64,000 nucleotides of DNA from Candidatus Bathyarchaeota archaeon (lineage in GTDB: Archaea > Thermoproteota > Bathyarchaeia > Bathyarchaeales > Bathycorpusculaceae). Every line of letters starts with the position of its first letter. Within the stretch, counting starts at the first letter, position 1. This document shows, one piece after another, positions 38,882 to 61,767 of the stretch. The stretch lies in the NCBI GenBank assembly GCA_022865455.1, contig JALHSY010000055.1, positions 3,965 to 67,964 of the forward strand, written 5' to 3'. Both the position numbers and the translations under genes were made by a program. A model generated the notes under the pieces. The model made no database searches, had not been told where the DNA came from, and saw only the letters and a list, made by a program, of their open reading frames with translations.

Positions 38882-38893
38882 TCGATCGATCGA

Positions 38894-41029: not shown

Positions 41030-41144
41030 CAGATGAATTCCTCTATACTTAGTGAGTGTATCGAAAATAAAACTATCTCAATGTTATTGAAACAGGGATC
41101 GATCGATTGCAAGTAGCGACGAAACATACATTGCCAAGGCCAAA

Positions 41145-41474
41145 TTGGACGAGGCTTTCAAGAAGCTGAGCAAATACCTCAGCGTGACCGGTGTAGAAGA
41201 AGATAAGAAACCGCTGCAAGAAATAGTAGTCCAACAGGAAACTGAGATTACGAACCTTCGCAATCGGTTGGACGTTGTCGTCAAGGCAGGGGAAAAGAGT
41301 AGGGAAGAACTTGACGAGATGCGACAACAGCTGAGCTCGCTAGCTTCTGAGGTCGGCCAGCTGGCGAGTAGGTTGAGCATGATGCGAGCACCAATCCCGA
41401 CGAAGGAAAACAGGAAAGCCAGCTCAAAAGCTGCAAAGACCTTGGAAAAAGAAGGATTCGTCATCGAGAAGTGA
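41145..41474 (+). CDS. Hypothetical coiled-coil protein
   Basis: 109-aa ORF with a TTG start. Its composition looks more protein-like than that of the overlapping antisense ORFs. Confidence 0.35.
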   Translation: MDEAFKKLSKYLSVTGVEEDKKPLQEIVVQQETEITNLRNRLDVVVKAGEKSREELDEMRQQLSSLASEVGQLASRLSMMRAPIPTKENRKASSKAAKTLEKEGFVIEK

Positions 41475-41544
41475 TTATTCAAGACACTTTTTACATAGCG
41501 CACGCGCTAAATTGTTTGATCTTTCTGTGTGCAGGGGCTTCAAC

Positions 41545-45784: not shown

Positions 45785-47557
45785 ATGCGAATTACTAAAC
45801 CTGAAATCGATGAAATCTACAAAAGAGTGCAATCGAAATATGGAGGAATTAAGGAAGACTATTTCGCCTTATTGTACTTAACCAAGGAATTCAGGTTAAA
45901 CCTCGAGGAAACAGCAAACAACCAAGTTGCGTTTGGTGGAACGGACTACGGAATAGACGCCTTTCACTTCGACGAATTGCGAAGGAATCTTTACCTTTAC
46001 CAGTTCAAATGGTCTGTTGACCCGATGTTGTTTAAGGACTCATTCCAGAGGTTAATCAAAGACGGCATGGAAAGAATTTTCGGAAATCCAAGACAGGATC
46101 CGAATCAGAATCAAGTCTTGATAAAACTGAAAACTTGTCTCGCAGAAAATCGGTCGATAATTGATAAAATACTCATTCATTTCGTGTTCAATGGCGACGT
46201 AGAAACTGCAGAAAGGAGCCGCGTTCTGGATAGATTGCGTGAAGACCTTTACGATAAGAAATTCCTCGTGGAGCAGTATTTTGAAGGACAAAAAGTGCAG
46301 TTGATAATTCAATACATTTCAAATGCTAGACAAGAACGTACCAACATAGTCCAGGTCTCGGCAGCAGCTCACAAGTACGAGTTTGAAATTGCTGGCAGGA
46401 TTGGCTTGGATTCTCCCGACAAGAAGCTGTATGTCTTTTTTATTCCTCTCCACAAGCTCCTTGATATGTATAACGACCTTGGTCCGATGTTCTTTTCAAA
46501 GAATATCAGGTCTGGCTTGCCTGAAGACAAGAATACTAACCGAGAGATAAGGCGGTCACTCAGAAGGATAGTGCTTGAAGGAGAAGCAGTTGATGACTTC
46601 ACATTCTACCATAACGGCATCGCGTTAACTGCAGAAAAAGTGGAAGAAAAACAGAATTCAAGTATTATTTCTTTGGTGGAACCAAGAATCTTGAACGGCG
46701 CACAGACTGTCACAAGTTTAAAAGAATTTTCTGAGAAGAACCGCGGGAATAATAGTTTCAATCAGAACATAGAACGCTTTCATGAAATCAAAGTATTAGC
46801 AAAAGTGGTTCATTCAACAAACGATGACTTCATCAGGAGTGTGACCATAAATAACAATAGGCAGAACCCTGTCATGCCATGGAATCTGAGGGCAAATGAC
46901 ATGGTACAATTGCAATTTGAGGACAAATTCCGTAATGAACTCAAAATCTACTACGAGAGACAAGAAAATGCATTTAGGAATCTAACAGACCTGGACAAAG
47001 AGCAAATTGGTATAGTCGATTCCAAAAGCATAGAGATACGAAAGTTAGCACAGACATTTCTTGCTATACAAGGACAAATCGAGAAATTCTCTTCAATCCC
47101 TGAAGTTTTCGAAAATCAGAATTATTATGAAGATGCGTTTAAGGAGAGATACCTTCGAGTAGATGCAAGAAAGCTAGTACTATTCTACAAAGTCCAATTC
47201 AAGTTGTCCAGCATAATTAACGAGTTCGAGGAAAAATGGGCAAAATACTGGTACCTCGAAAAGGCGAGGTATTTGTTGTGGTCACTACTTATTCAAGGCC
47301 TCTTGAACAATGACAGGTTTGGCACATATGTGAATGACTATGGAAATTCGCTTGTAATCGAAGGCGATTTTACTGCCCTTCTAAAAGACATTGCATTGAA
47401 GCAAATACGTCACATTATCAGCAAAGCACTTGAAGACAGGAGATATGCAAAGTATCTTGCTGACAACCGATATTCGTTCCTCAGGTCAAGGGCTACATAC
47501 AATCACTGCATGGAAGTGGCGCACAAACTGTACAAATGGGAAAAGCTCAATCCCTGA
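45785..47557 (+). CDS. AIPR-family abortive-infection protein
   Basis: The N-terminus has GGTDYGIDAFHFD...LYLYQFKWS (PD-(D/E)xK-like). The centre has FYHNGIALTAEKV...ILNGAQTV, the hallmark NGxQT of AIPR. Confidence 0.75.
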   Translation: MRITKPEIDEIYKRVQSKYGGIKEDYFALLYLTKEFRLNLEETANNQVAFGGTDYGIDAFHFDELRRNLYLYQFKWSVDPMLFKDSFQRLIKDGMERIFGNPRQDPNQNQVLIKLKTCLAENRSIIDKILIHFVFNGDVETAERSRVLDRLREDLYDKKFLVEQYFEGQKVQLIIQYISNARQERTNIVQVSAAAHKYEFEIAGRIGLDSPDKKLYVFFIPLHKLLDMYNDLGPMFFSKNIRSGLPEDKNTNREIRRSLRRIVLEGEAVDDFTFYHNGIALTAEKVEEKQNSSIISLVEPRILNGAQTVTSLKEFSEKNRGNNSFNQNIERFHEIKVLAKVVHSTNDDFIRSVTINNNRQNPVMPWNLRANDMVQLQFEDKFRNELKIYYERQENAFRNLTDLDKEQIGIVDSKSIEIRKLAQTFLAIQGQIEKFSSIPEVFENQNYYEDAFKERYLRVDARKLVLFYKVQFKLSSIINEFEEKWAKYWYLEKARYLLWSLLIQGLLNNDRFGTYVNDYGNSLVIEGDFTALLKDIALKQIRHIISKALEDRRYAKYLADNRYSFLRSRATYNHCMEVAHKLYKWEKLNP

Positions 47558-47580: not shown

Positions 47581-48156
47581 CTAAAGGAGCTTATAGTAAG
47601 TCTTTTCATTGCACGCATCTATCTCCTTTAGGCTGAACCCTCGCTTTTTCTCCAAAATGTGTTCGAGCTTGTCATTCAAGACTTGTTCCATCTCCAATTC
47701 CTTGAATCCTCTCGTACGTGCGTATGTCTCCCAGAGCTCAATGAATTTTGTACCATGCCCTTTATCCTCAATGAAGACTTCTATCAGCACTATCGAACAT
47801 TGGCTTCCATGAGCTGCTCCTATCTGTTTTCCGTCATATTGAAGCACAAAAACAGGTGGTTCCTCTGGATTTGTCCAACCGCTTGCTGATTTGTCGCCAA
47901 TCCTGCCTGATCTGAAAACATATTTTCCGCAACAAATCATAGAATACCTTCCAAGTTGTCGACTTCTTGATATTTTTGTATGACATGTGCTTTCTAATCT
48001 TTTCGGGATATGCATTTCAATCGCTGACGAAGCATGGAAAAAGGTAGATGGCTCTCTAACGCGCACGCATAAAGATAAGCGTAGTTGCTGAAACCGTGCC
48101 TGGAAACTGTAACCGTCCAAACGTTTGAAGAACAGGTCAATAAAGTCCGTCATCAT
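47581..48156 (-). CDS. Possible GNAT-like acetyltransferase
   Basis: Only the C-terminal half (IEVFIEDKGHGTKFIELWETYARTRGFKELEME) looks GNAT-like. The true start may be internal. Confidence 0.35.
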   Translation of the reverse strand: MMTDFIDLFFKRLDGYSFQARFQQLRLSLCVRVREPSTFFHASSAIEMHIPKRLESTCHTKISRSRQLGRYSMICCGKYVFRSGRIGDKSASGWTNPEEPPVFVLQYDGKQIGAAHGSQCSIVLIEVFIEDKGHGTKFIELWETYARTRGFKELEMEQVLNDKLEHILEKKRGFSLKEIDACNEKTYYKLL

Positions 48157-48432
48157 CTCTTCAATGTAAGCGTCTTTTGTGCCAAACGGCGCTCGCGTGA
48201 TAATTGAGCATAATATTCTCCTGCAGAAAATAAAAACGTGCTGTACACATTAGAAATAAACCGAAGCTATTAGGAAAAACGATGTTGCTGGTCGACAGCA
48301 TCTTGCAGACGGTGTGACCTTGTCCACATATGCAAGCAGAATTGGAGGAACGCTGCATCATAAATCAACGGTTGTTGCTATGACCTTCGGTCTTGCCAAG
48401 AAAGAAAGGAGACGAGCAATTGTAAGCTCTAG

Positions 48433-51400
48433 TCAGCCAAAGGCTCTTCTGAGTTTCGCAAATCCCTCGTCCAAGTTGGCGTGGTGTATCACATAGACTC
48501 TATATCCTAGGGCTTTGAGTTTCTTCCTTTTTTCTTCGTCGTCTTTTTTGACGTAGTCTTCGTCGTGGGCTGGGCCATCGACAAACACAGTGATTTTCTC
48601 TTTCTTGTAGTAGAAGTCTGGTTTTGCTATTCGCACGTCGCCGTCATAGATGATTTGTTGTCCTTTGTCGGGTAGTGGGAGTCCTTCAGTTGCGATTCCT
48701 TTCAGAACGTTTCGTTCTAGTTCTGATTCGCATGTTTTCAGTAATTCCGCGAGTTTCTGTTCCTGATTGACGGCTGGGACTTGGGTTGGCTGCGCTGATT
48801 CCAGTTTTCTAAGTGTGGGTAGGACGAGGTTTCTGTCTAGTTTTTCGTGTTCTCTTTGGTTGTAGTAGTTGAGTAGGCATTCGTAGCATGCTTTGTTGCA
48901 TCCTGCTTGCGGATCGTTTTCGTGGAGGAGTTCTCTTGCTCTTGCGACAACGCCTGCGAGGCCTTGTGGGGTGGTTAGTGCTTTTATTGCTCCTGTTCCT
49001 CCTTCGGCTGTTTCGTAGAGGATTATGTCGCATTTGGAGGGGTCTGCTTGTTCTTTGGAGACAAAACCGTCAACTTCGCTTTCATCTAGATTTAGTGCTA
49101 TCTGTAGGCCTTGGAGGAGGGCTTCTTTGAGTGTTAGGTAGTAGGCTTCTGTTTGTGATTGTTTCAGGTCTTTTGGTGGGGATATTTTGAGGGTGGCAAC
49201 GTCGTGTGTGCCGACTGTGAAGAGTATGATGCTGTGGATTATGTCGTCTTTTTGGGCGTTTTTGGGGCAGTGCGAGTTGGATTCTGGGTCGATGTGTTGG
49301 TCTATTCGGTCTTCGCCAAATAACCATCGGTTACAGGCTGAACAAAGTACGAATCCAGCATCTTGGCCGTCTTCTTGGTTTCTGTTTGTTCCTTTGTTTA
49401 TATGTATGATTCGTCCGTTGTGTTCGTATTGGATTATGAGGGATAGGTCGTTTTCGCTGGTTACCGTGTATTCCTGGGTTTGGTCGCCAGCTTCGTAGTG
49501 GGTTGATGATTGGTAGCCTAGTCTCATGCGTTCTTCTTCGTCGCTGGTGATTCTGAGTTTGCGTATCGCGTACATGTCTGGTAGTTGCATGGCATTGGGG
49601 TTTGGGTGCTCGCCCGTTAGCGGTTTTTTGCATTTGGGACATGCCGCTGCGGTTTTTGCTGGTTCACCTCTGAGGACGTTTGAACAGTTGGGGCATATGA
49701 GCAGGTGTTCTCTGACTGGTTTTTGGTCTCTTACTTTGGGTCTTGCGTAGTTGACGGAGTATTTGGCGCCTTGATAGTAAACGGTGTTTCCGGGAGCGAA
49801 TTCTGAGAGAGCGATTACGTTGGCGCGTTGGATTTCGTTGTCTGATTCGCTCAGAGAGAGGACTATGTTGCTGCTTGGGAAGCCATAGTTCGGTAGGAAG
49901 CCTCTGGCGGCTAAATATCGGTATATGTAGAAGTCTTTTTCGCCTTCGCGCATGTTTTTAAGTTTCTGTTCTATGGCTGTAGTTCTGTTTTTGTCTTGGG
50001 AGGAGGGGCCTTCTTTTCTGTTTTTGGCACTTAGGTCTTGATGTTCTCGGTCCAGGGCAGCGTATTCTTTTCTCCAATATTCGAGGGCATTTTCCAGGTT
50101 TTCTGGGAAAGAGTCAATGGTGTTGTTGATGAAGGCTTCTGTGAACCAGGGGTAGTTTACCATTTCTAGTGAGAATGCGCTTTTAGCTGACTCCAAAATC
50201 CGGGTTTTTGACTCCGTAATTTTTCTTGTTAGGTCATTTTTATAGTCTGGTAAGATGGGGTAGCCTGGTTCGTCAAGGTTGAGGAATTCGCCGATGCCGG
50301 TTTTTAGTTTTGTTTCCATCGTTTCAAGAATCAAGGAGTGGAGGTGTGTTGTAATGAGTTGTTTGTTATCGAGCATGAATCTGGGGGAGGTGATTTTTCC
50401 TGAGACGATTTTTTCCGGGAACCGATAGAAGTATTGATCGTGAGGGCCTCTCGATATGCCGCTTCCGCAGAATGTGGTTATTATTGATGGTTGGCTTTTT
50501 CTTCCTGCCCGTCCTGCTCTTTGGGCGTAGTTGCTTGGGCTTGGGGGAACGTTTCTCATGTAGATGGCTGAGAGCTCCCCTATGTCTATGCCTAGTTCCA
50601 TAGTTGGTGTGCAGACTAGCACGTTTAGGGGGTCTGCGGGGTTTCGGAATTTTGCTTCGATTTTCTTTCTTTCGTCGCCGTCGAGTTGGCCGCTGTGTTC
50701 TTGGGCTTGTATGCTAACTGTTTCTTTGAATGGTTGCGAGTATGCTATTCTGAAGTAGTTTTTTTCAAAGTCTCTTTCTTGGAGTAACCCACAATCTGAT
50801 CCAGTGCATAGATCTAATGTTGTTTGGTGTTGAATGAGGCCGCATTTTGGGCAGACTTTGTGTTTTGTCCTTTTGAGAGCTTGAAGTTGGATGTACTCGG
50901 AGTCTATCATGTAAACCTGCCCAAGCAGTATACCTCTGTAACCTTTCACTCCATGCTGAACTAGGATCGGCGCGAGTTCTTTATCTGACAGGATTTCGAC
51001 GACTTGATTGAGCACGTTAGCAGCAGTGTCATGGTCAACTCCCAGAACTCTCTGTGTCCATATCATATGCCTGCTCTTTGTGCGAGTTAGCCTGTAAACC
51101 AATGTCGATCTTGCTTTTTTTGCAGTATCGGAATATCCAATCACTGTTCTGGGTGATTCAGCTCCAATGTCAAACTGGCATTCTTCGGAGAGTTTTGATA
51201 TTATCTCTGTTTGGAATTCTCGTTGCTTGATTAGGTCATTCTGATAAATTGCCCGTTTACTTCTGAAAATATCCAAGATACCAGTTAAGAAATCATGTCT
51301 TTCGACTGATGTGAGCTTGTCAAGTGGTTTGACATTTTTCCATACAGCATCGTCTATGGCTAAGAGGTCTAGTCCGTTATACGTTACTTTGACAAGACCC

Positions 51401-53688
51401 ACTTCTTCGAGGTTGCGTTGGTTTTTTCTAGTGGATGCTGCAAGGTCTAGGACTACGTTATATTCTAAGTATCGCTGGTATGCTTCGTCGGCATCTGTGG
51501 TCTTGACATATTTGCCTTTTGCTCGGGAGTAGTCTGGGATTACGCCGTTTTTCTCCATCGTTTTGAAGATTCTTGTGCCCGTATGGTTAAGACCAAGTTC
51601 TTTATCTGTTCCTTCGACGAAACCTCCATCAATGAGTGCGTAGTAGAGCGCTTGTCTAAAGCGGATTCTTTTTTGCAGGTTATTCATGTGCGCCGCCTGC
51701 AAAGCAGTGTCTTGTCTGCTGTCTGAGAAGGCGATTAGTTTTCTTTCGTTAATTCCCAGTTTAGAAACGATACTTGAGACAAGAACGTCTGTTCCTGTGC
51801 TTCTGCCGATTGAGCCGAAGGTGAAGAGTTTGCTAAACTCACGTGGTTTTCTGTCGTAATATACTCCACAAGTGGGGCAGAAAAGAAATGGGGCTGAAAC
51901 GAGGATTACTTCTAGCTTGTCTTTACAGTTGCAGGCCGCGTCTATTTTGTTGCAGTCCGGGCAATAGGCAGTTTTGTAGGGTTTGGCTTCTTCATGGCTT
52001 TCTCTGAGTTCTTTTTCGCTGTCGAACCATTCTGTTGGAAACGGCACGGCGTTTTCGTCATAGGTTCCAATAAGTATGTAGGCGTTTTTGCCTTGTGTTT
52101 CTACCATGTCGATGTCTCTGGGGTAGAGAGTGTTGTCTTCGGCTATCGTTACGCCGTAGAATTCTTGGCCACATGAACGGCAGAAGTTAAGGGGAAAAGT
52201 GACTCTTGTTTTGGAGGCTTTGGCGCACGTTGGGCAGGTGCTTTCTCCTCTTTCGTTGAGATGTGGTCCTTCTTTTGTTAGGCAGGTTGTGATTGTTTTG
52301 CCTTGGGAGAAGAATGTGTGAATTTTCGGAACGAATTTGGGTTGTTGGGTGCCGAGGATTTCTACGGTTCCGACTGAGCCTGCGAGGAGTGCTGCTTTGA
52401 GTTCTTTTGTGCAGTCTTCCATGGAGGAGGTTGGTCGGTGTTTTTCCTTGTATTCCTTGAGTATTGTTCCTAGCGATAGGGAGTTTTCTGAGAGTTTGTC
52501 TTCGAGGAATTGGACTGTTTGTTGGGAGGATAAAATTGTGCCTAGCGCTTCTGGTGTTTTGTCTTTGTTAGCTATTTCCGTGCCTGTTAGTGATTCTGCT
52601 AGGGTGATGGCTTTTTCGAGGCTCCCATCGAATTCTTCTACCATGGCGTTTGCAACTTGGATTGTTGACGGGAGTGGTTCTGGGTTGGATCTGGGTGTTT
52701 TGAGGTAGTGTTCTCCGATTACGTGGGTTGGTTGGAATTCTTCGCTGAATAGGTTTTTTGCAAATTGAGCGATTAGCTCTTCGCCTTTTTCTCCTTTTTC
52801 ACTTTGGACAGTTGCGCTTGTGCCAATGCATCTGAGCGTGCCTATGGTCCCTGTGCGTTGTTTAAGTCGTCTGATTAGGCAGGCTACATCTGCGCCTTTC
52901 TTGCCTGAATAGGTGTGAATTTCGTCCAAGACGAGGAATTTGAGGCGGCCCTTGTGTTCTTTGGGAAAGAGTTTTCTGTCTTCAAAACGTGTTAGAAGCA
53001 GTTCAAGCATGACGTAGTTGGTCATGAGTATGTCCGGTGGGTTTGCTTGTATTTCGTCTCTGGACAGAAGTTCGCTGTCATAGGGTTCGTCTCTGCCTGT
53101 GGCTGTTTTAAGTGCTGCTCTTGCTTCTTCGGGACTGTTTTTTGTGTCGCCTGTATAGAGACCTATTTTTAGTCCTGTGCCATGTAGCCTTTGTGAGAAG
53201 TCTTCGTATTGGCTGTTTGCCAACGCGTTCATTGGGTAGACTATTATTGCTTTTATCCCGCTTAGCCCTTGGTCTCGCATTCTGAGGCATTCATTGATAA
53301 TTGGTATGCCAAAGCAGAAGCTTTTACCTGAACTCGTTCCTGTCGTGACAAGAGTGTTTGCGTTGTCCCTTAGAATCGAGAGAACGGCTTCACTTTGATG
53401 TTTGTAAGGAGTTATTGGCACATTTGCTAGTTTTCCATATGGATCTTTTCTGGCGAATATTTTGAGGGCATTCCTGTGAAGAATGTTATCGTCCACTAAT
53501 TTTTGGAGACTATCACCTTGCTCAAATCGGCGATTAAGCTGAATATAGGGATCTTTCCAAAGAAGAGTACCCTCAGCAATCTTCTCCTGAATCCACTCTT
53601 GAATGATCGGATTTCTAATTCTCTGGAATGTATTCACATATGTTTTGTAGGATTCCTGTACGTGCGCTAAAGCTTCAAAGGGGTTCAT
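48433..53688 (-). CDS. DEAD/DEAH helicase-DUF1998-PD-(D/E)xK (DUF559-like) fusion; DrmA+DrmB-like (or DruE-like)
   Basis: 1751 aa with TTGTSSGKSF (Walker A), LVLDEIHTYSG, YAQRAGRAGR and several CxxC pairs. CNKACYECLLNYYNQREH is typical of the DUF1998/MrfA Zn domain. The C-terminus has KPDFYY..ITVFVDGPAHD...LGYRVYVI. Confidence 0.9.
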   Translation of the reverse strand: MNPFEALAHVQESYKTYVNTFQRIRNPIIQEWIQEKIAEGTLLWKDPYIQLNRRFEQGDSLQKLVDDNILHRNALKIFARKDPYGKLANVPITPYKHQSEAVLSILRDNANTLVTTGTSSGKSFCFGIPIINECLRMRDQGLSGIKAIIVYPMNALANSQYEDFSQRLHGTGLKIGLYTGDTKNSPEEARAALKTATGRDEPYDSELLSRDEIQANPPDILMTNYVMLELLLTRFEDRKLFPKEHKGRLKFLVLDEIHTYSGKKGADVACLIRRLKQRTGTIGTLRCIGTSATVQSEKGEKGEELIAQFAKNLFSEEFQPTHVIGEHYLKTPRSNPEPLPSTIQVANAMVEEFDGSLEKAITLAESLTGTEIANKDKTPEALGTILSSQQTVQFLEDKLSENSLSLGTILKEYKEKHRPTSSMEDCTKELKAALLAGSVGTVEILGTQQPKFVPKIHTFFSQGKTITTCLTKEGPHLNERGESTCPTCAKASKTRVTFPLNFCRSCGQEFYGVTIAEDNTLYPRDIDMVETQGKNAYILIGTYDENAVPFPTEWFDSEKELRESHEEAKPYKTAYCPDCNKIDAACNCKDKLEVILVSAPFLFCPTCGVYYDRKPREFSKLFTFGSIGRSTGTDVLVSSIVSKLGINERKLIAFSDSRQDTALQAAHMNNLQKRIRFRQALYYALIDGGFVEGTDKELGLNHTGTRIFKTMEKNGVIPDYSRAKGKYVKTTDADEAYQRYLEYNVVLDLAASTRKNQRNLEEVGLVKVTYNGLDLLAIDDAVWKNVKPLDKLTSVERHDFLTGILDIFRSKRAIYQNDLIKQREFQTEIISKLSEECQFDIGAESPRTVIGYSDTAKKARSTLVYRLTRTKSRHMIWTQRVLGVDHDTAANVLNQVVEILSDKELAPILVQHGVKGYRGILLGQVYMIDSEYIQLQALKRTKHKVCPKCGLIQHQTTLDLCTGSDCGLLQERDFEKNYFRIAYSQPFKETVSIQAQEHSGQLDGDERKKIEAKFRNPADPLNVLVCTPTMELGIDIGELSAIYMRNVPPSPSNYAQRAGRAGRKSQPSIITTFCGSGISRGPHDQYFYRFPEKIVSGKITSPRFMLDNKQLITTHLHSLILETMETKLKTGIGEFLNLDEPGYPILPDYKNDLTRKITESKTRILESAKSAFSLEMVNYPWFTEAFINNTIDSFPENLENALEYWRKEYAALDREHQDLSAKNRKEGPSSQDKNRTTAIEQKLKNMREGEKDFYIYRYLAARGFLPNYGFPSSNIVLSLSESDNEIQRANVIALSEFAPGNTVYYQGAKYSVNYARPKVRDQKPVREHLLICPNCSNVLRGEPAKTAAACPKCKKPLTGEHPNPNAMQLPDMYAIRKLRITSDEEERMRLGYQSSTHYEAGDQTQEYTVTSENDLSLIIQYEHNGRIIHINKGTNRNQEDGQDAGFVLCSACNRWLFGEDRIDQHIDPESNSHCPKNAQKDDIIHSIILFTVGTHDVATLKISPPKDLKQSQTEAYYLTLKEALLQGLQIALNLDESEVDGFVSKEQADPSKCDIILYETAEGGTGAIKALTTPQGLAGVVARARELLHENDPQAGCNKACYECLLNYYNQREHEKLDRNLVLPTLRKLESAQPTQVPAVNQEQKLAELLKTCESELERNVLKGIATEGLPLPDKGQQIIYDGDVRIAKPDFYYKKEKITVFVDGPAHDEDYVKKDDEEKRKKLKALGYRVYVIHHANLDEGFAKLRRAFG

Positions 53689-53691
53689 TCA

Positions 53692-56600
53692 TCATTCACC
53701 TTGTCTTTCTTCAGTTAAACTAATTCTATCATATTCTTTTAATAACTCATCTTTAGTTACAAATGATCCGTGAACTGAGACATCTTTGTCTCGAAGAATT
53801 CTGAATGAATCTATAATGTGCGCAAAATCTTCTTTAGATACCCCATATATCTTGGCAATTGTGGCATCGATTTCTATCCTTAGCTTAAATCTTTCTGGTT
53901 CATCCCAAACAAATGGTCCACCAACAAAACCGGCTTCGGTGGCAAATGCGTCAAGACTTTTTGAAGTCCAGACGAGTTTTATTAAACGATTTTCCAGGTA
54001 TGTCGCTGCACATTGCGTATATCCATCCTTCGCAATGTTCATTAGACGCAAGTCGCTTGCAGTCGGAGCAGGTAATTGCTTTAAAATAAATGAATTGAGG
54101 TTTGTTCCGCCCATTTTTTGGCGAAGAATATAATCGAAAATTATTGACGTGAATACTCCAGTGAAAAGCAACGCGTCATTAACAGGGACCTCACCTCGAA
54201 ACAGCAGAATGGATGCACTATTTCCCATAGGCATCCAGGGTATTATTGTTCCCATAGCCGATCGAGTATCGGTAGTCATGCGTGTTATATTCCTGAACGC
54301 AAATGCCCATTTATGATTCCACGAATGCTTATTGGAAACTAACTTGAAGTCCCTTTCCGAGACCCAATAACGAGAAACGATTTCGTAATCTGCATTTTTC
54401 TTCTGTTCGATTGTTGGCTGATCCGTTCCTGCTCTCCTTCTTAAGCGGTTTTCCGCATCCACTTCTTCGAATGTTGCAAATCTGTGATCCAATTGATTGA
54501 AGAGTTTTGCTTCTAGTAGCGGAAGATATCTTTCGATTTCTTTTACGAAAATGCCGTTCGGCAACAAGGTGAAACCTCTTTCTAGAAGAGCTTCTTTGGT
54601 GTTCCCTTGAAATAGTTCCGCATCTGCCGTCATATGATAAATCTGCAAATATTCAATATTCCAAGGATTCGTATTATTGTTTTCATCAATTAACACTGGA
54701 TGTTTCCTGTACAAATTCTTAACTATCTCTGCATCCCTTCGGCTTTGAAAAGTAGCCAATGTTTTTGTGTTTGGATTTATCAAAGCTATCTCTTCAGGCG
54801 TCAGAATGATTCTTCTCTCCTGATCAGATAGTTGCTCTGTATTTGAGAGTAGGAAAGCGAAATCACTCTTGGTTTGAGGATTGCTTTTACTGGCAATTGT
54901 AAGAAGACAAAAGCGTTCCACTGGAGCAACGTCAGGAAAGAGCAGCTCTCTGTTTTCAAAATCATATAAAGAACAGATTGCTTTCGAATCAACTAGACTT
55001 CCGAAGAATTCTTTCCATGTGTCATCGGTCGCTATTCCTGTCTTTACAACTATTCCGGCTCTACCTTTCCTGCCAAGAATCGACCACCCATGCTCGGAGA
55101 ACAAACCAAAAGTGTTAGTGTCGCCAACAGCAGTTAAAGGAAATCTTCCGCTTTGTCGAATAAAGGAAGCTTTTTTCTGACTTTCGATTTGCGCATGAAC
55201 CCAAAGAGAAAACAAACTTGGGTTCCTCTTTTCCAAGGAGTCAATAAGCTGTGTTCTCTTAACCTTTGATTCAGTGTTGGCAATTTCGTCATCCCTTCCT
55301 ATGAACCACTCGCGCTCTTCGATCTTGATCTTTTCCCAAGGTGGGTTTCCGAGTATACAATCAAATCCTATTTCTTCTCTTTCAAAGATGTCAGGAAACT
55401 CGAGGTACCAATGGAAGAAGGAATAGTGCTTAACCAGTTTTTCGATCATTGTACAAGTTTCTGAGTATAACTTGCTGTTTCCTTCTTTTGATACCAGTCT
55501 CAGAACCGCTTGTGTTGGAGGCGTTGGACTGTCCTCCTGGAGTGGCCAGAAGAAGGCAGCCGTCCATGCATCGGCAAGCAGAGCTTGTTGCCTCAAATCT
55601 GGTAGATTCAGTAATGCATTATATTTCCGTTTTTTCTCTTCAACATCACTTGGTGATTTTTCGGCAAACTCGTCCAACAAGGCGTGCTCTTTGGAATGAG
55701 TTGAATATTCGGTTAGATTAAATTCAACCATTAGTTTTTGGTTCTGTTCTAAGACATTAATGGCTCTGATCTTCTTTGAAAAAATCTTATCATCGCCTAA
55801 GACTGACGTAAATGCTTCTGCAGGTAAGCCTTTCTCAAGCAGCATAGGCGTAGCGCCAACTAGCGAATTGCCGCATTTTATGTGATGGTCTAAGAAGTTT
55901 AGAGGCATATCTTCTACACAAGAATTGATCCACAAAGAAACCTTTGCCAGCTCCACTGCCATCGGATTCAGATCTACTCCGTATATGCAGTGCTGGAGTA
56001 TCGTTCTTGTTGCCTTCTTGATTTCCCTATCTGGTGGCTCTGTCTGACTAGTATAGAGTTTAGCGAGTTCTCTTGCAAGATAATTGTTGGCAGCGATTAA
56101 GAAAGCGCCGCTGCCACACGCAGGATCACATACTTTGATAGATAGTATCGCTTCTTCTTTGTTCTTAGCTCCTGCAAGTTTTTCCTCTACAACAGGCTTC
56201 AAAGCAGTTCTGATTAATTCATCGATTAAGTGAAGTGGTGTGTAGTAACTTCCTGTCGTCTTCCGATTCATTCCTCTAGGGTCCAAAAAGAAAGTATTGG
56301 CAGCAACCTGTTCCCCTTGAACTTCTTGCGCTCTATCGAACACTCTAGGTACAAAATCTAACAAACTCTCATAAATCGAACCAATTTCCTCAACGCCAAG
56401 GTCTAAGTAGTTAATGCGTTTCAAAACCCGCTCTTCTTCTATCATTGTGAGTTGCCTGACTGCTTCAATTAGATCTTCGTTCTTGCAAGTCAAACCAGAC
56501 AAGACCGGAATTTGGGCGTCGTCAAACAAACTACCATTATGACCAAAAACCTTCAACTCTGGACAGCCATTCTTCAACATTTGAAAAGTAACCTTCAGGC

Positions 56601-57681
56601 CTTCCCACAAGTCTAAATGATCGTCTTTTCCCCGCTTAGTCTCAGAAATTTCTCGAAGACGAGTTACACTGTACTCCTCAGCATACAATGAATCCCTTGT
56701 CGGTAACATCGCTCGCTGCTCAGCAAACAATAAAAACAAAAGTCTATAAACAACATGCAAAAGTTCTGAATAGTACGCCCTGCAGAACTCCTCATCTGCA
56801 ATCATTTTTTTGGATATATCGGGCGTCAAGAAGCCATTGCCTAATGCTTCAATTGCTTTTTTCACATTCAGCCGAAGATTCTTGCCAACCGTTACTCCTG
56901 CTGCTCGGCTCTCCTTGTAGAATTGTTCAAGAATACAGTTACCATCTTTTTGAAGAACAAACCTGCTAGCATGTGCCATTCTGTACATTGCTCTGAAATC
57001 AGTGAAGCTCCTCTCTCGGAAGATATTCTCGATGTCAAACTCAACGTAGCCTTTAGTTGTGGTATGGTAATATTCGCGGAGAATGCGAAGTAAAATGCCG
57101 TTGGTGACAATTCCCCATTTAGAACTTTTGTTTACATTCAGATAAGCCTGCAACTCATCATGAGGACTGCGGCTTCGTCCCCTCCCAATGACTTCTCCCT
57201 CGGTTCTGTTGTTGGCTTCCTCCAAATCTTGAGAAGGGGCTACCATATGCAACATTGGCGCTCCAGCGCTAATCCAACCTCTGTGAGAGAGCCTGAACCT
57301 AAGCTTATCATCACCGTCGACAACAATTTCTTCTTTGATGAAGCCTGGATCAAAACCTAACTCCTTGAAAAGCGGAACTATCCACTTACTTCTGGCGTCA
57401 GACACATTCATCTTGAGGTAGCGATTTGACAAGGAATCCCAACGTTCACGAAGGCGATCCCAAGAATCAACAATCCACTGATCAAGTTCTGCCTTGTTCC
57501 TAGGCGCTTCTGCACTGAATGTTTCAAAGGATTCTGGCTGAACCTTTGGATTAGCCACTTTTTCTCCGCAAATAATCTCAAGAAACTCTGAGGTAATTAT
57601 GCCGCCATGAGCTGACATGTTAGAAAGCGGATTCTTCCTCAACTCAGTTCCCTCCCAACGCTGGATAGTAAACAGTAACAC
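53692..57681 (-). CDS. Large N6-adenine DNA methyltransferase (Eco57I/PglX/DrmMI-like)
   Basis: 1329 aa with TGSYYTPLHLI, VCDPACGSGAFL (motif I), IYGVDLNPMAVELAKVSLW and ILGNPPWEKIK (motif IV NPPW). The likely true start is the ATG at 57618 (MSAHGG), which removes the 38-nt overlap with the SNF2 gene. Confidence 0.9.
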   Translation of the reverse strand: MLLFTIQRWEGTELRKNPLSNMSAHGGIITSEFLEIICGEKVANPKVQPESFETFSAEAPRNKAELDQWIVDSWDRLRERWDSLSNRYLKMNVSDARSKWIVPLFKELGFDPGFIKEEIVVDGDDKLRFRLSHRGWISAGAPMLHMVAPSQDLEEANNRTEGEVIGRGRSRSPHDELQAYLNVNKSSKWGIVTNGILLRILREYYHTTTKGYVEFDIENIFRERSFTDFRAMYRMAHASRFVLQKDGNCILEQFYKESRAAGVTVGKNLRLNVKKAIEALGNGFLTPDISKKMIADEEFCRAYYSELLHVVYRLLFLLFAEQRAMLPTRDSLYAEEYSVTRLREISETKRGKDDHLDLWEGLKVTFQMLKNGCPELKVFGHNGSLFDDAQIPVLSGLTCKNEDLIEAVRQLTMIEEERVLKRINYLDLGVEEIGSIYESLLDFVPRVFDRAQEVQGEQVAANTFFLDPRGMNRKTTGSYYTPLHLIDELIRTALKPVVEEKLAGAKNKEEAILSIKVCDPACGSGAFLIAANNYLARELAKLYTSQTEPPDREIKKATRTILQHCIYGVDLNPMAVELAKVSLWINSCVEDMPLNFLDHHIKCGNSLVGATPMLLEKGLPAEAFTSVLGDDKIFSKKIRAINVLEQNQKLMVEFNLTEYSTHSKEHALLDEFAEKSPSDVEEKKRKYNALLNLPDLRQQALLADAWTAAFFWPLQEDSPTPPTQAVLRLVSKEGNSKLYSETCTMIEKLVKHYSFFHWYLEFPDIFEREEIGFDCILGNPPWEKIKIEEREWFIGRDDEIANTESKVKRTQLIDSLEKRNPSLFSLWVHAQIESQKKASFIRQSGRFPLTAVGDTNTFGLFSEHGWSILGRKGRAGIVVKTGIATDDTWKEFFGSLVDSKAICSLYDFENRELLFPDVAPVERFCLLTIASKSNPQTKSDFAFLLSNTEQLSDQERRIILTPEEIALINPNTKTLATFQSRRDAEIVKNLYRKHPVLIDENNNTNPWNIEYLQIYHMTADAELFQGNTKEALLERGFTLLPNGIFVKEIERYLPLLEAKLFNQLDHRFATFEEVDAENRLRRRAGTDQPTIEQKKNADYEIVSRYWVSERDFKLVSNKHSWNHKWAFAFRNITRMTTDTRSAMGTIIPWMPMGNSASILLFRGEVPVNDALLFTGVFTSIIFDYILRQKMGGTNLNSFILKQLPAPTASDLRLMNIAKDGYTQCAATYLENRLIKLVWTSKSLDAFATEAGFVGGPFVWDEPERFKLRIEIDATIAKIYGVSKEDFAHIIDSFRILRDKDVSVHGSFVTKDELLKEYDRISLTEERQGE

Positions 57682-60589
57682 ATAACAAATCTACTGAAGC
57701 AACAGACAAATTATCGATGCCTTCGAGCCACTGTTGCTCCCCGCGACCTTCCAAGCTCTTCTTAACCTGCCCCCTTTCGATGGCAAGCTCGGCACAACGC
57801 TCTTCAGCCCTCTTCCGCAACGCCGTTTCTAGATTCAACTTAGATAAAGCTGCACTCAAGTCCTCCTTCATTTCAGCCTCAGTTCTCGTATGAACAACAG
57901 GGATCGAACAGGAAAGCGCATTAACATCAGCCTGAGAAAATATATCACCACCATGAACTTCAAAACCAACTCTCAAAAGCTCTTCAACTATAGACACAGG
58001 ATCCGTATGAACAGCATATCTTGCAAGAAACGTGTAAACTGCAGAGACCTTAGTCGCATTTCTTGTCGCTATGCAAGCAGTACGCCCATAAATGTCCGAC
58101 TCTTTTGAGGAAAAAGTAAGCTGCTTAACGAGGTCTATCAAATTCCTAACCAGCCTATGACCCAAATCAATGACCTCAAGCTCTGGATCATCTCTGCCCC
58201 TTAATGGATCGAACGTAGCACTCTGCAATACATTCTTTTCCAGGCCTTGTGATAGGCGGCTGTCTAAAACTTCAATCCTGAAAGTGTCGTCATCACTGCC
58301 CGTGATTCGGCAGCCAAATCTGTTCAACCCACTCTTCACAAAGTTTTGGATCTGCTCTTTGCTGCCAATCAGGTTCTCTGTTTCAGTCAACCTCTTCTGA
58401 ACTTCAGACAAATCAATGCTGGACTGACCATAAAAGTTGTCATTCTTCATCCGCTGAATTGACTCATCCGAAAACGGATTAATCACCTGCTCCGGTTCAG
58501 GCGACATATCCTTAAGAAAATCATCCAAACTACGCTGACCAATCTTAACATCGTAACCCTGCTCCCTGATCAGATCCAAGACAGAAATATCGTCACCAAA
58601 AAAAGGCGGCGAGAAACCGAAATCCTGCCTAATCTGAAAAGCCTTCTCCACCAAAACCTTCAGAATAGCAGCTTCCAACGAATCGTTAACGACCATGGTC
58701 CTTATGAAAACGGTGTCTTTAGGTTGCCCATAACGGTCAACACGCCCATTCCTTTGCTCAAGCCTATTCGGATTCCAAGGCAACTCGTAATGGATTATCT
58801 GTGAAGCAACATACTGAAGGTTAATCCCTTCAGAGACGCAATCAGTTGCGACCAAAATTGCTTGAGGTGCCTTTTCAAACTCATCGAATTTCTCAGCTCT
58901 CTGTACTTCGTTCAGTGAACCATCAAGCGTGAAAACTTTTGCTTCTTTGAAGTTTCTGTGTTCAGGAATATTCTTAGCAAGATAATCCAACGTGTCTCTA
59001 TACCTAGTGAAGATAATGACCTTGGGAATCCTTCTAACCATAATGCGCAACGTATTGTCCAGCAATTCCGTAAGCTTAGTGTCTTTTGCCGCAGTAACTT
59101 TTTGAGCTTCAAGAAGAGTTTGTTCCAAAAGCCCTTTTTCCTCAAACAGCGTGCCTTTGTCTCCAAACACATGGCGTTCCATTCTTGCATCTGTTTCTGC
59201 ATCATCAATACGTTCACCCGTGTCGTTGTCCAAAACCGCGGCGCGTGCTTCTTCTTCAGTTACAGATGTCTCCTCATCAAAACGCTCTTCTTGAGCTTCT
59301 ATTCTCCTCTCAACGGTTTTCAAACGATTCTTTAATGAACAAACAAGAGAATTCGGGGAACTCAACGCACGCTTATGAAAATGAGTCACAGTCCACTTGG
59401 CTAATCTCATTCTGTAAGTGTGCTCACCACCCGCAGTAGCAAGAATGTGCCTTCCAAGCTTCTCAACCTCATTCATTACATTAGATTCCAGAGGCGAAAG
59501 CTTCACAAAAACCTCATCGGCATCCCTCTTAGGAAACGGGCTTTTGTCGCCAGTTTTGCTCATTTCTGCTTCAACATCGGATCGCCGTCGCTGACAAACG
59601 TACAACTTGGCTATATCACGATCAATCACTGGATCACTGTCGGAACCAGTTACAGCTCCAACCTCCAACATCTTAAGCAAGCTAGCGAAAGTGTCAGTAT
59701 AGCCGTTATGCGGTGTCGCAGTTAGCATGATCAGGTGTCGCGTCTTCTTGGAGAGGTCACGCATTAGTTCCCAGCGTTCCATTTTCACCTTCTGCTTAGG
59801 ATCTATTTGGTGAGGCTTTGCAACATTATGAGCTTCGTCGACCAAAATAATGTCCCAGTTTTGTTCAAGAACCTGAGCTTTTACCTCAGCCATCTTGGCG
59901 TAATCCATCGAAGCAATAAGATACGGGTAATACTCCCACGGATTAGTGCCTGGAGGCAAGCCCCGCTCCAGTGTGCGTCGATGAGATGAAGAGATTATCT
60001 CTGAATCAATATGGAAGAAATAGTCTAAAGCTTCTTTCCACTGTTCTCTAAGCATTGCTGGGCAAATTACCAAGAGACGAGAAGCTCTCTGTCTCGCGAA
60101 AAGCTCAACAACTGTCAAGCCTGCCTCTATGGTTTTGCCCAAGCCAACGTCATCAGCGATAAGCAAACGAACTCGAGGCATCTCCAACGACATGACAACA
60201 GGAACCATCTGAAACAAAACGGGAACAACTCTGCTCCGCTGAAGACTCATAAGAGGAGCAGCACCATGAATCATACTGAGGCGATAAGCCCTCAGAAGTA
60301 GATCCTGCGCAGAAAAGTTCCCCACAATCTCACTAGAAGGCGGCTCAATCCTGCCTGGAAGAACCGTTTCAAAAGGCAAATAGAACTTCCTTCGCTCGAT
60401 TGGCGTACCATCAATGCTTGTGGCAACCAGCACATCTCCCTGCACGTCATCAACACGCCACAGCCTCGACCTGAGCTCAACAATCGAGCCGAGCGACAGC
60501 TTGACCTCTTTGTTCGCGCCGCTGTCTTCTTCTTCAAACCCCTTTTTCGGCTCCAAAGCTTCGTCACCAATACCGTTCATGCACATCAA
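57644..60589 (-). CDS. SNF2-family helicase (DrmD-like)
   Basis: 981 aa with LIADDVGLGKTIEAG, ILVDEAHNVAKP, LMLTATPHNG, ILVATDCVSEGINLQ and QRNGRVDRYGQ. Confidence 0.9.
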   Translation of the reverse strand: MMCMNGIGDEALEPKKGFEEEDSGANKEVKLSLGSIVELRSRLWRVDDVQGDVLVATSIDGTPIERRKFYLPFETVLPGRIEPPSSEIVGNFSAQDLLLRAYRLSMIHGAAPLMSLQRSRVVPVLFQMVPVVMSLEMPRVRLLIADDVGLGKTIEAGLTVVELFARQRASRLLVICPAMLREQWKEALDYFFHIDSEIISSSHRRTLERGLPPGTNPWEYYPYLIASMDYAKMAEVKAQVLEQNWDIILVDEAHNVAKPHQIDPKQKVKMERWELMRDLSKKTRHLIMLTATPHNGYTDTFASLLKMLEVGAVTGSDSDPVIDRDIAKLYVCQRRRSDVEAEMSKTGDKSPFPKRDADEVFVKLSPLESNVMNEVEKLGRHILATAGGEHTYRMRLAKWTVTHFHKRALSSPNSLVCSLKNRLKTVERRIEAQEERFDEETSVTEEEARAAVLDNDTGERIDDAETDARMERHVFGDKGTLFEEKGLLEQTLLEAQKVTAAKDTKLTELLDNTLRIMVRRIPKVIIFTRYRDTLDYLAKNIPEHRNFKEAKVFTLDGSLNEVQRAEKFDEFEKAPQAILVATDCVSEGINLQYVASQIIHYELPWNPNRLEQRNGRVDRYGQPKDTVFIRTMVVNDSLEAAILKVLVEKAFQIRQDFGFSPPFFGDDISVLDLIREQGYDVKIGQRSLDDFLKDMSPEPEQVINPFSDESIQRMKNDNFYGQSSIDLSEVQKRLTETENLIGSKEQIQNFVKSGLNRFGCRITGSDDDTFRIEVLDSRLSQGLEKNVLQSATFDPLRGRDDPELEVIDLGHRLVRNLIDLVKQLTFSSKESDIYGRTACIATRNATKVSAVYTFLARYAVHTDPVSIVEELLRVGFEVHGGDIFSQADVNALSCSIPVVHTRTEAEMKEDLSAALSKLNLETALRKRAEERCAELAIERGQVKKSLEGRGEQQWLEGIDNLSVASVDLLCVTVYYPALGGN

Positions 60590-60776: not shown

Positions 60777-60911
60777 ATGCCCACATGTCCAAAGTGTAAG
60801 AAAGAAAACACCAAGTCAGTCAAAACATGGAAATACGGCCAATTCGCAGTTCATGCGTGCACATGCGATCGAGCGATCAACTTTCGTAGAGGCGCTGCAA
60901 CTCTCGATTGA
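60777..60911 (+). CDS. Possible small zinc-ribbon protein (44 aa)
   Basis: My own translation gives MPTCPKCKKENTKSVKTWKYGQFAVHACTCDRAINFRRGAATLD. It overlaps the 3' end of the convergent gene and is speculative. Confidence 0.25.
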   Translation: MPTCPKCKKENTKSVKTWKYGQFAVHACTCDRAINFRRGAATLD

Positions 60912-61767
60912 ATGGTTTTGGCTTCTGATTCAGCAACTCGTTGAGAGCAGCGACTTGCGCACTCAACCTCTTCTGGTTCTCTAGCATGGGGTCCATTTTC
61001 TTGAGGCTTTCAACAACCATAGGGAAGTTCTGAACCATGAAAAGGTAGTCTTCAAGAAGTTTCTTATCTCTCGACTCTAGTTCGGGTTTACCTTTACTGC
61101 AGTCCACCCAGACATCGCCAACGCTGACAGTCTTCTTGAAGAGCGGCGCTAAGGGATCATTTAGAATAGCCAAATGAAATTTGCCTGCCGGTCTCGGACA
61201 CCCAAACCTTACCTTCAACGCATCTTCCAAATAGCGACTGAACTCGACAGTTCGCAAAAGACTCTGCCGTTCCAAATCATCCGCGTCGCTACCCCTAAGA
61301 CCAAAATCATAGACCTCGACAGCATTGGATGATGGTAGATACCTGAACGCAACACCCAAGGCACGTCCATAGAAGCAATCCCACCCGGCCATGTGAACGG
61401 TCTTCCAGCGCACAGTCGCCTTAGAAATGTCTACCACACCCCTAACAACGGGAAACGCCCAACGGCAGTTATGCAACCGTAACAGAGGCTGCCAACGAAC
61501 AGTCTCAACCTCGTAGGTATCGAGAAAACTTTGCCTTCCTCTATCAGTGACTTCAAAAAACCACGGTTTCTTCCGCGTAGTTCGCTCAATATAGCCACCG
61601 CGCTCAAACCTAACAAGGTAATAATGAACAAACTGACGACTACGACCTACTTTGTGGGCTATCGCTGCTTCATTGCTGACCCCCTCAGAAATCAGGGTGA
61701 CAATGCCTTTGGCAAAACAGAATTTTGCCTTCCTCTTTGCGCTATCAAGCCCTGCGGGTTCACCCAA
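60877..61767 (-). CDS. wHTH-containing protein, possibly a replication or regulatory protein of an integrated element
   Basis: 296 aa. The N-terminus has AAIAHKVGRSRQFVHYYLVRFERGGYIE (wHTH-like). The rest is unrecognised. Confidence 0.55.
   Translation of the reverse strand: MGEPAGLDSAKRKAKFCFAKGIVTLISEGVSNEAAIAHKVGRSRQFVHYYLVRFERGGYIERTTRKKPWFFEVTDRGRQSFLDTYEVETVRWQPLLRLHNCRWAFPVVRGVVDISKATVRWKTVHMAGWDCFYGRALGVAFRYLPSSNAVEVYDFGLRGSDADDLERQSLLRTVEFSRYLEDALKVRFGCPRPAGKFHLAILNDPLAPLFKKTVSVGDVWVDCSKGKPELESRDKKLLEDYLFMVQNFPMVVESLKKMDPMLENQKRLSAQVAALNELLNQKPKPFNRELQRLYES

Follow-up and report, generated by a model that had tools for sequence, protein, structure and literature searches.

A three-gene archaeal operon in a Bathyarchaeota defence island that very probably represents ARMADA Type I

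ARMADA Type I, including its archaeal gene order, was defined in a recent survey of anti-virus systems (PMC12458937; Bell et al., 2025, bioRxiv 10.1101/2025.09.15.676423). According to this survey, YprA-family helicases normally come fused to OB-CON-DUF1998, DISARM being the lineage with a split arrangement, and the helicases of ARMADA and Druantia form sister lineages. ARMADA Type II was not found in archaea, and the C-terminal Vsr domain of Type I is described as "predicted active" in one place of the paper and as "active?" in another. The experimental validation of ARMADA that we found in the literature concerns only Type II, from E. coli, and none was found for Type I or for archaeal systems. 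In E. coli, Type II defence is non-abortive and requires all genes of the system, the ATPase motifs of ArmA and ArmC, and the NPPW motif of ArmB. For Druantia, DruE is a 3'-to-5' ssDNA-dependent helicase, and the nuclease (PLD) domains of Druantia III-A are dispensable for defence.

Here, we report an operon of three genes from a Bathyarchaeota defence island that is very probably an intact ARMADA Type I anti-virus operon with the archaeal/cyanobacterial order armA-armB-armC. The window, i.e., the whole stretch of DNA that was analysed, comprises 64 kb; its archaeal origin is supported by an archaeal Nre gene that it carries and by the name Candidatus Bathyarchaeota archaeon that NCBI attaches to a protein identical to the helicase. 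Three tightly packed ORFs on the minus strand encode, in this order, an SNF2 protein, a methylase, and a helicase (Table 1); the ORF list places them at exactly the coordinates, and gives them exactly the lengths, of an earlier sequence-only reading of the locus. The SNF2 ORF has a TTG start, with residues 2 and 4 encoded by ATG codons, and overlaps the methylase ORF by 38 nt; the GTG start of the latter lies inside this overlap. The methylase stop codon is followed by the helicase ATG after a gap of 3 nt. The E-values of 1e-90 to 1e-139 obtained with defence-protein models exclude chance. Scans of the window for tRNAs and Rfam families were empty, and a repeat search in the stretch without large ORFs (60.5–64 kb) revealed nothing notable.

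Table 1. Positions of the three genes, of the helicase domains, and of neighbouring genes in the window
Feature	Position	Strand	Description
armA-like gene	57644..60589	-	SNF2/RapA-type (BrxHII/DrmD-like) ATPase, 981 aa as listed
armB-like gene	53692..57681	-	PglX/DrmMI-like N6-adenine DNA methyltransferase, 1329 aa
armC-like gene	48433..53688	-	YprA-family DExH helicase-nuclease, 1751 aa
ArmC RecA1 lobe	52801..53403	-	residues 96-296, Pfam DEAD 2.3e-22
ArmC insert region	50719..52791	-	residues ~300-990, RecA1 to C-terminal half of RecA2
ArmC RecA2 core	50497..50727	-	residues 988-1064, Pfam Helicase_C 2.8e-14
ArmC MZB/DUF1998 zinc-binding domain	48874..49131	-	residues 1520-1605, Pfam MZB 35.5 bits (cutoff 24.2)
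ArmC Vsr/DUF559-type PD-(D/E)xK nuclease domain	48436..48771	-	residues ~1640-1751
191-aa ORF	47581-48156		downstream of operon, matches no family
HTH protein	60877-61767		flanking gene
HamB-like DEAD helicase	38894-41029		

The domain content named in the sequence-only reading (SNF2, N6-adenine methylase with NPPW, DEAD, and DUF1998) is borne out by Pfam matches and motifs. The SNF2 protein contains the SNF2-rel_dom and Helicase_C domains, with the Walker A motif GLGKT at residue 149 and DEAH at residue 251. Its best PADLOC match is DrmD (1.3e-118), followed by BrxHII (1e-74); of the NCBIfam models, RapA matches at 1e-44, and DISARM_DrmD scores 428 bits, below its cutoff of 610. ArmA from E. 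coli ATCC 8739, the strain whose operon served as the Type II reference, is 29% identical to this protein (E=4e-55).

The methylase matches the Pfam families Eco57I, N6_Mtase, and MmeI_Mtase and contains the SAM motif VCDPACGSG at residue 517 and NPPW at residue 779. Its best PADLOC match is DrmMI (1.7e-92), the NCBIfam matches to BREX PglX are weak (49 bits against a cutoff of 500), and E. coli ArmB is recognized at E=2e-38. The poorly conserved C-terminal third of the protein is probably its target-recognition domain. Matches to PADLOC Type IIG models ("REase_MTase_IIG", 1e-62), the Eco57I and MmeI_Mtase families, and a large N-terminal domain of approximately 460 residues in front of the catalytic core would fit a Type IIG/ISP-like restriction-modification system, in which the nuclease for restriction would reside in the methylase and the two helicases would play an accessory part. 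However, when 31 orthologues are profiled, this N-terminal domain lacks a conserved D...(D/E)xK triad, the only conserved nuclease signature of the trio is the Vsr domain of the ArmC-like protein, and the three genes are conserved together, all of them being essential in Type II. We regard such a restriction-modification system as highly improbable.

The third protein unites DEAD, Helicase_C, and MZB/DUF1998 in a single ORF. The RecA1 lobe contains the Walker A motif TGTSSGKS (residues 116–123) and DEIH (residues 255–258), both invariant in 20 relatives; the RecA2 core, which includes motif VI (QRAGRAGR) at residue 1056, likewise has invariant residues. In the AlphaFold2 model (pLDDT 83.6), the region between RecA1 and the C-terminal half of RecA2 begins with a helical bundle, continues with a beta-rich module in which four CxxC pairs occur (at residues 485, 503, 576, and 604), and ends in helical or winged-helix-like segments with a further cysteine cluster (946–966); these cysteines are invariant. 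For this region, PMC12458937 describes BrxA-like, zinc beta-barrel, and MarR-like inserts, with which the succession seen in the model is consistent. A Foldseek search with the 701-residue model of the inserts found no significant PDB match, probably because the model is multi-domain and its parts only weakly resemble known folds. The number of CxxC pairs in the OB region does not vary among the sequences compared, E. coli ArmC and DruE among them, and fails to distinguish Type I, with one zinc insert, from either Type II or Druantia, with two. Six more invariant cysteines (C1449, C1452, C1474, C1597, C1601, and C1604) lie within the MZB/DUF1998 domain and just upstream of it.

The sequence-only reading had interpreted this protein as a DrmA-DrmB fusion within a compact variant of class 1 DISARM, with a PD-(D/E)xK domain in place of the PLD nuclease DrmC, and had offered a relation to DruE as an alternative. 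Several observations speak for DISARM: the best PADLOC matches of the SNF2 protein and the methylase are DISARM components, the helicase carries DUF1998 as DrmB does, and the very name of ARMADA means "disARM-related." The absence of a PLD gene, also claimed and likewise in favour of this variant, holds beyond the operon and its immediate surroundings, as the PLD motif HxKxxxxD is absent from every ORF of at least 100 aa in the whole window, and no PLD family match was found among the flanking ORFs scanned. The helicase itself points elsewhere. PADLOC assigns it to DruE1 (5e-139) and DruE3 (1e-137), compared with 3e-27 for DpdJ and 5e-15 for DrmA, the DrmA match being confined to approximately 70 residues of Helicase_C; thus, the E-values favour the DruE models over DrmA by about 120 orders of magnitude. 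With the NCBIfam model DISARM_DrmAL the helicase scores 17.3 bits where the cutoff is 999, and the SNF2 protein stays below the cutoff of DISARM_DrmD as well. The nearest PDB sequences are the ~2000-aa helicases 9tu7 and 9wae and YprA/MrfA (6znp), with no DrmA-named entry among the 24 PDB sequence matches. Finally, the fused layout is the default of the YprA family, DISARM being the split one, and the helicase has been catalogued in the ARMADA clade. The DISARM variant is thereby largely refuted, and we consider it very unlikely. What survives of the DISARM likeness is the kinship of two components: judged by their model scores, the SNF2 protein and the methylase are homologues, but apparently not equivalogs, of DrmD and DrmMI. 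The fusion of DrmA with DrmB does not stand, and DruE proved the better of the two proposed relations.

Should the locus then be seen as a Druantia system, with a DruE helicase and unusual partner genes? DruE1 and DruE3 are its top PADLOC matches, its closest sequence relatives of known structure are ~2000-aa helicases, and the helicase lineages of ARMADA and Druantia are sisters. However, PADLOC 2.0 (2023) predates ARMADA and has no model for it, so that DruE is simply the nearest match on offer. No Druantia partner gene is present: tblastn with DruH found nothing in the window, the flanking genes are unrelated, and no conserved homologues of druA-D, druM/F/G, or druH were seen beside helicase orthologues in 77 loci; the conserved partners are an SNF2 protein and a methylase. 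Moreover, DruE carries either a PLD or an inactivated Vsr domain (PMC12458937), whereas the Vsr signature in the window is invariant. A Druantia system in this place therefore seems extremely unlikely to us.

Direct comparison agrees with an ARMADA helicase. E. coli ArmC matches the protein with 166+139 bits (E=7e-44), the alignment extending to residue 1741, compared with 140+115 bits for DruE; the respective identities of ~24% for E. coli ArmC and ~22.5% for E. coli DruE barely differ. In a distance-based, bootstrapped tree, built without the full reference set of PMC12458937 (among others WP_108720193.1 for Type I and WP_000937974.1 for Type II), the helicase groups with those of archaeal three-gene loci (97–100% bootstrap). 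When the tree is rooted on DruE, the whole related set forms a clade with 100% bootstrap, apart from the Type II ArmC of E. coli.

The C-terminal DUF559/Vsr-like fold was recognized correctly in the sequence-only reading, and all of the strings quoted there (CNKACYECLLNYYNQREH, PDFYY, VFVDGPAHD, and GYRVYVI) are present in the helicase translation. In the full-length protein, Pfam DUF559 matches residues 1691–1732 with 18.0 bits, below the cutoff of 20.6; when the C-terminal 112 residues are scanned alone, the score rises to 23.4 bits, above the same cutoff. Of 20 relatives, 17 match DUF559 and 14 match REase_MTES_1575. Residues E1658, D1691, D1704, G1705, and H1708 are invariant and include residues of catalytic type. 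A profile search matches the domain to PDB 3r3p (E=9e-4). Its structural model (pLDDT 87) likewise has 3r3p_B, the catalytic domain of I-Bth0305I, as the top Foldseek match (probability 1.00, TM 0.64/0.72, E=0.015), while the weaker matches are mostly other PD-(D/E)xK nucleases. Only one such domain is present, and the protein terminates after it. BLASTP found no similarity between this domain and the C-terminus of E. coli ArmC, although the latter gives weak matches to the Vsr profile at the expected FxDG..H positions. On the basis of the conserved residues and the fold, the domain is predicted to be an active nuclease.

The trio is conserved far beyond this genome. Among 39 related loci with enough flanking sequence, from both Archaea and Bacteria, 31 have the SNF2, methylase, and helicase genes in this order on one strand, and in 14 of the 31 the gap between methylase and helicase does not exceed 73 nt. 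Haloarchaea and Methanosarcina are among the groups with orthologues. The idea of a compact, methylase-linked defence operon is upheld; that of an unusual archaeal variant is not, as the same genes in the same order recur in most of the informative loci, across Archaea and Bacteria.

The operon is flanked by an HTH protein and, downstream, by a 191-aa ORF that is not conserved and an AIPR/AbiU gene on the opposite strand. The 191-aa ORF and the HTH protein were considered as additional parts of the system and rejected, as they have no homologue in the 77 related loci and match no defence model. The fourth gene of Type II was sought as well: tblastn of the window with two ArmD proteins (from locus L078 and from E. 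coli) found nothing, and ArmD-like UvrD helicases occur beside some bacterial relatives only, never in archaeal loci or in the window. The HamB-like DEAD helicase of the same island was considered as a displaced ArmD and rejected, since it is not of the UvrD type and has no ArmD match, and since the AIPR gene on the opposite strand lies between it and the operon.

A homologue search combined with a cluster look-up established that the 1751-aa helicase is identical to NCBI entry MCJ7430178.1, which Table S1 of PMC12458937 lists as "ARMADA Type I helicase," as it does the relatives OPY50649.1 and PQJ33609.1. Since this very protein is listed and the trio matches ARMADA Type I, the locus falls into an already named subtype, contrary to the novelty first ascribed to it. 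The trio is an ordinary member of that class, and both the class and this helicase were already known.

By analogy with homologues, ArmB, with its variable C-terminal recognition domain, would probably mark a specific sequence motif throughout the host's own DNA, and ArmA would act as an SNF2-type dsDNA translocase. ArmC would probably load where invading or replicating viral DNA is single-stranded, translocate along or unwind it, and nick or cleave it with the C-terminal Vsr-type nuclease. The outcome would probably be direct, non-abortive clearance of the invader, as measured for the four-gene Type II system of E. coli. As armD is essential in Type II and absent here, applying the Type II mechanism to the trio is an extrapolation. 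Likewise, since Druantia III-A can defend without its PLD domains, the effector is not necessarily the nuclease at the C-terminus. Conceivably, though we think it rather unlikely, Type I has a materially different triggering or licensing logic than Type II and works without ArmD. In that case, the Vsr nuclease of ArmC might be licensed directly by the reading of methylation by ArmA and ArmB, or a neighbouring helicase of the island might act in trans. If Type I did follow a logic of its own, the operon would offer a tractable minimal model, and the first archaeal one, of the ARMADA/Druantia helicase-nuclease family.

The value of the locus as a discovery is small, the class having been named and surveyed in 2025 with this helicase in the survey. 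It remains useful as an intact and clean representative of ARMADA Type I from archaea. Three genes without ArmD would provide a simpler setting for studying the role of the Vsr nuclease, the DNA feature that triggers the helicase, and the reading of methylation. A practical caution also follows: PADLOC 2.0 and NCBIfam r20, having no ARMADA models, mislead on such a trio by making it appear a DISARM/Druantia chimera. Current DefenseFinder models do call ARMADA, according to PMC13463889.

Compared with known systems, the locus resembles BREX in having a methylase of the PglX kind and an SNF2 helicase of the BrxHII kind, but it lacks PglZ, BrxC, BrxA, BrxB, and BrxL. With class 1 DISARM (DrmA, DrmB, DrmC, DrmD, and DrmMI) it shares a defence logic linked to a methylase, a helicase of the YprA family that carries DUF1998, and two partners, a DrmD-like SNF2 protein and a DrmMI-like methylase. 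In DISARM, however, the helicase is split into DrmA and DrmB, to which the PLD nuclease DrmC is added, as opposed to one ORF and no PLD here, and DrmA is EVE-like at its N-terminus and also contains a trigger loop (PMC12458937). DruE of Druantia types I–III, the best PADLOC match, comes from the sister lineage of helicases and arranges its domains in the same overall order. It works with different partners (DruA-D, DruM/F/G, or DruH) in place of an SNF2 protein paired with a PglX-like methylase, and it ends in a PLD domain in type III and in an inactivated Vsr domain in types I and II (PMC12458937), unlike the domain with invariant residues in the window.

Closer still is ARMADA Type II (armABCD of E. 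coli NCTC 12900, ATCC 8739, and EDL933), which has armA, armB, and armC in the same order, with all three proteins homologous to those of the trio and, as far as weak profile matches indicate, the FxDG..H Vsr motif in common with the helicase. It differs in its own fourth essential gene directly downstream of armC, armD, which encodes a RelE-like domain fused to a GajB-like UvrD helicase, and in an ArmC that often has additional EEP-like or second Vsr domains, as does the 2113-aa ArmC of E. coli with both; the sequence P0104, with 1942 aa, has a second, degenerate copy. From ARMADA Type I, no difference was found in the features compared. The two have in common the BrxHII/RapA-like SNF2 helicase, the PglX-like methylase, and the YprA-like helicase that includes DUF1998 in the same chain and ends in one Vsr-type nuclease domain predicted to be active, all encoded in the archaeal/cyanobacterial gene order without ArmD.

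The operon armA-armB-armC of the window is an ordinary member of ARMADA Type I that is already known and catalogued. ARMADA was defined in a survey of approximately 52,000 YprA-family helicases as the combination of a YprA-like helicase, nearest to DruE of Druantia, with a BrxHII/RapA-like SNF2 helicase and a PglX-like methylase (Bell et al., 2025; PMC12458937). According to the same study, the phyletic range of Type I is broad and extends to archaea, its order in "many archaea and cyanobacteria" is SNF2, methylase, helicase, and its ArmC ends in a "predicted active Vsr-type nuclease". Type II, described there as missing from archaea, has an additional protein, ArmD, in which a RelE-like domain is joined to a GajB-like UvrD helicase. 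The window helicase is identical to NCBI protein MCJ7430178.1 from Candidatus Bathyarchaeota archaeon (contig JALHSY010000055.1, locus MUO83_03030), which is an "ARMADA Type I helicase" in Table S1 of PMC12458937. The same table contains its relatives OPY50649.1, PQJ33609.1, and entries from Halorubrum sp. 48-1-W and Halobacteriales QS_8_69_73. The trio thus falls cleanly into a named subtype and is not the unusual archaeal variant proposed by the sequence-only reading, which was nonetheless correct in the coordinates and lengths of the three ORFs and in all peptide strings that it quoted, as found in the translation.

The three minus-strand ORFs are arranged head-to-tail, with a 38-nt overlap of armA and armB and only 3 nt between the methylase stop and the helicase ATG. 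In Pfam terms, ArmA consists of SNF2-rel_dom and Helicase_C (motifs GLGKT at 149 and DEAH at 251), and ArmB matches Eco57I, N6_Mtase, and MmeI_Mtase (VCDPACGSG at 517, NPPW at 779). ArmC contains DEAD (96–296), Helicase_C (988–1064), MZB/DUF1998 (1520–1605), and a weak DUF559 match (1691–1732), with motifs TGTSSGKS at 116–123, DEIH at 255, and QRAGRAGR at 1056. The methylase is least conserved in its C-terminal third, as would fit a variable recognition domain. The armC region (48000–54000) differs from armA and armB in its plus-strand skews, which are strongly negative for AT (about -0.30) and positive for GC (+0.13 to +0.19); A and C are unusually frequent on the ArmC coding strand.

Features of the operon and its surroundings in the window
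Feature	Position	Strand	Remark
Nre_N/Nre_C, archaeal marker	5548-6930	minus	
PocR-aminotransferase-AAA fusion	9130-12618	minus	
CAP12/Pycsar-type TIR protein	12944-14011	plus	
GmrSD	16286-18004	minus	
IS240-type DDE transposase	18638-19579	minus	
Second N6_Mtase	24039-24992	minus	
Run of four same-strand genes	37070-43901	minus	next four rows
HATPase_c_3 protein	37070-38434	minus	454 aa
HamB-like DEAD helicase	38894-41029	minus	711 aa; PADLOC HamB 2e-29, PDC-M23B 6e-30
Protein without assigned family	41545-42750	minus	401 aa
HD-CE	42747-43901	minus	384 aa
AIPR/AbiU	45785-47557	plus	
ORF without family match	47581-48156	minus	191 aa; 276 nt downstream of operon
Helicase (armC)	48433-53688	minus	ORF, 1751 aa
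Methylase (armB)	53692-57681	minus	ORF, 1329 aa
SNF2 protein (armA)	57644-60589	minus	ORF, 981 aa
HTH/TrmB-like protein	60877-61767	minus	296 aa; 287 nt upstream of operon, same strand

As a reference, we used the experimentally validated armABCD and druHE locus of E. coli ATCC 8739, whose ArmC Walker A lysine (K110) and Walker B aspartate (D234) agree with the mutants in PMC12458937. The window proteins match its ArmA (4e-55) and ArmB (2e-38), and the helicase scores higher with ArmC (166+139 bits, aligned to residue 1741) than with DruE (140+115 bits). ArmD and DruH had no match anywhere in the window. A scan of species-representative genomes yielded 567 confirmed relatives, of which 77 loci were retained, and synteny was counted in the 39 loci whose 5' end was intact and whose upstream sequence measured 7.2 kb or more. 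The SNF2 and methylase genes precede the helicase on the same strand and in the same order in 31 of these; four others have at least the methylase upstream, and the four with neither are all from Chloroflexota. The methylase-helicase gap is at most 73 nt in 14 loci. In neighbor-joining trees, the window groups with Bathyarchaeia, Methanogaster, Methanoperedens, and other archaeal three-gene loci (97–100% bootstrap), and, with DruE as the root, the scanned loci all fall into one clade (100% support) that excludes the Type II ArmC of E. coli.

The helicase had been read as a DrmA-DrmB fusion of a DISARM-like system. Among PADLOC models, it matches DruE1 (5e-139), DruE3 (1e-137), and DpdJ (3e-27), versus only 5e-15 for DrmA, a match confined to about 70 residues of Helicase_C. 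The NCBIfam DISARM DrmA model scores 17 bits (cutoff 999), and the DrmD equivalog reaches 428 bits on the SNF2 protein (cutoff 610). The solved structures nearest by sequence are two helicases of about 2000 aa (9tu7, 9wae) and YprA/MrfA (6znp), and no entry named DrmA occurs among these matches. In the YprA family, the helicase is normally joined to OB-CON-DUF1998 in one protein, DISARM being the lineage where it is split (PMC12458937). The DrmA-DrmB fusion is therefore unsupported; the relation to DruE, initially offered as an alternative, is closer, and the trio does contain DISARM-related parts.

The proposed Vsr-type domain and the absence of a PLD nuclease fared better. The DUF559 match is below the Pfam cutoff in the full-length helicase and reaches 23.4 bits (cutoff 20.6) when the last 112 residues are scanned alone; among 20 diverse relatives, 17 match DUF559 and 14 match REase_MTES_1575. 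Since residues E1658, D1691, F1692, Y1694, D1704, G1705, H1708, D1717, and R1721 are invariant in these 20 relatives (down to 46% identity), the predicted nuclease keeps its catalytic-type residues. No HxKxxxxD motif is present in any ORF of at least 100 aa in the whole window, and none of the flanking ORFs scanned matches a PLD family, in agreement with the proposed absence of PLD. In the N-terminal domain of the methylase, no D...(D/E)xK triad is conserved, and hence the sole conserved nuclease signature of the trio is in ArmC. Altogether, the trio carries intact motifs for two ATPases, one methylase, and one Vsr-type nuclease.

The operon is part of a dense archaeal defence island. Island genes in the window also include GmrSD, a TIR-domain protein, AIPR/AbiU, a HamB-like helicase, HD-CE, a second methylase, and an IS element. 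The four-gene run may constitute a defence module of its own, either Hachiman-like or a candidate one. The adjacent 191-aa ORF and HTH/TrmB-like protein are conserved in none of the 77 related loci and hence are probably outside the system; the latter could be a local regulator.

ArmC-like helicases also occur in other contexts. Six loci of Chloroflexota (Anaerolineae), L077 (3069–10785), L013, L020, L028, L037, and L059, have no SNF2 or methylase partner; in this two-gene, methylase-less arrangement, a ParE/RelE-toxin and UvrD helicase (ArmD-like) gene directly precedes the ArmC-like gene. At another methylase-less locus (L058:2517–15031, Chloroflexi), a 1908-aa Sacsin (SACS) and NOV_C protein and a 572-aa NERD and UvrD-like helicase precede it; the NERD domain recalls TALON, whose TPR-CSD and TBP genes were not found among the few flanking ORFs scanned. 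In eight loci of Deinococcota, Chloroflexota, and Armatimonadota (L006, L010, L041, L060, L061, L066, L067, and L078), an ArmD-like UvrD helicase follows the ArmC-like gene. Such downstream helicases are restricted to some bacterial relatives, with none in archaeal loci. The tree covers six of the eight (all but L061 and L067), and their helicases belong to the window's 100%-bootstrap clade, to which the Type II ArmC of E. coli does not belong; hence the ArmD association may extend beyond the E. coli-type clade. In L078, ArmC also contains a second Vsr copy, which is degenerate, and an additional hydrophobic ORF of 249 aa lies between methylase and helicase.

Protection by E. coli ARMADA II is direct and does not involve cell death; it requires every gene, the Walker motifs of ArmA and ArmC, and the NPPW motif of ArmB (PMC12458937). 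A preprint describes DruE as a 3'-to-5' ssDNA-dependent DNA helicase and gives dsDNA with a 5' overhang as the substrate recognized by DISARM DrmAB; the PLD domains of DruE III-A are dispensable for defence (preprint). By analogy, the window operon most likely follows a three-part model, in which ArmB would mark self DNA, ArmA would translocate on duplex DNA, and ArmC would engage single-stranded parts of foreign DNA and then cut it with its Vsr domain. The trio differs from ARMADA Type II in having no ArmD, which is essential there.
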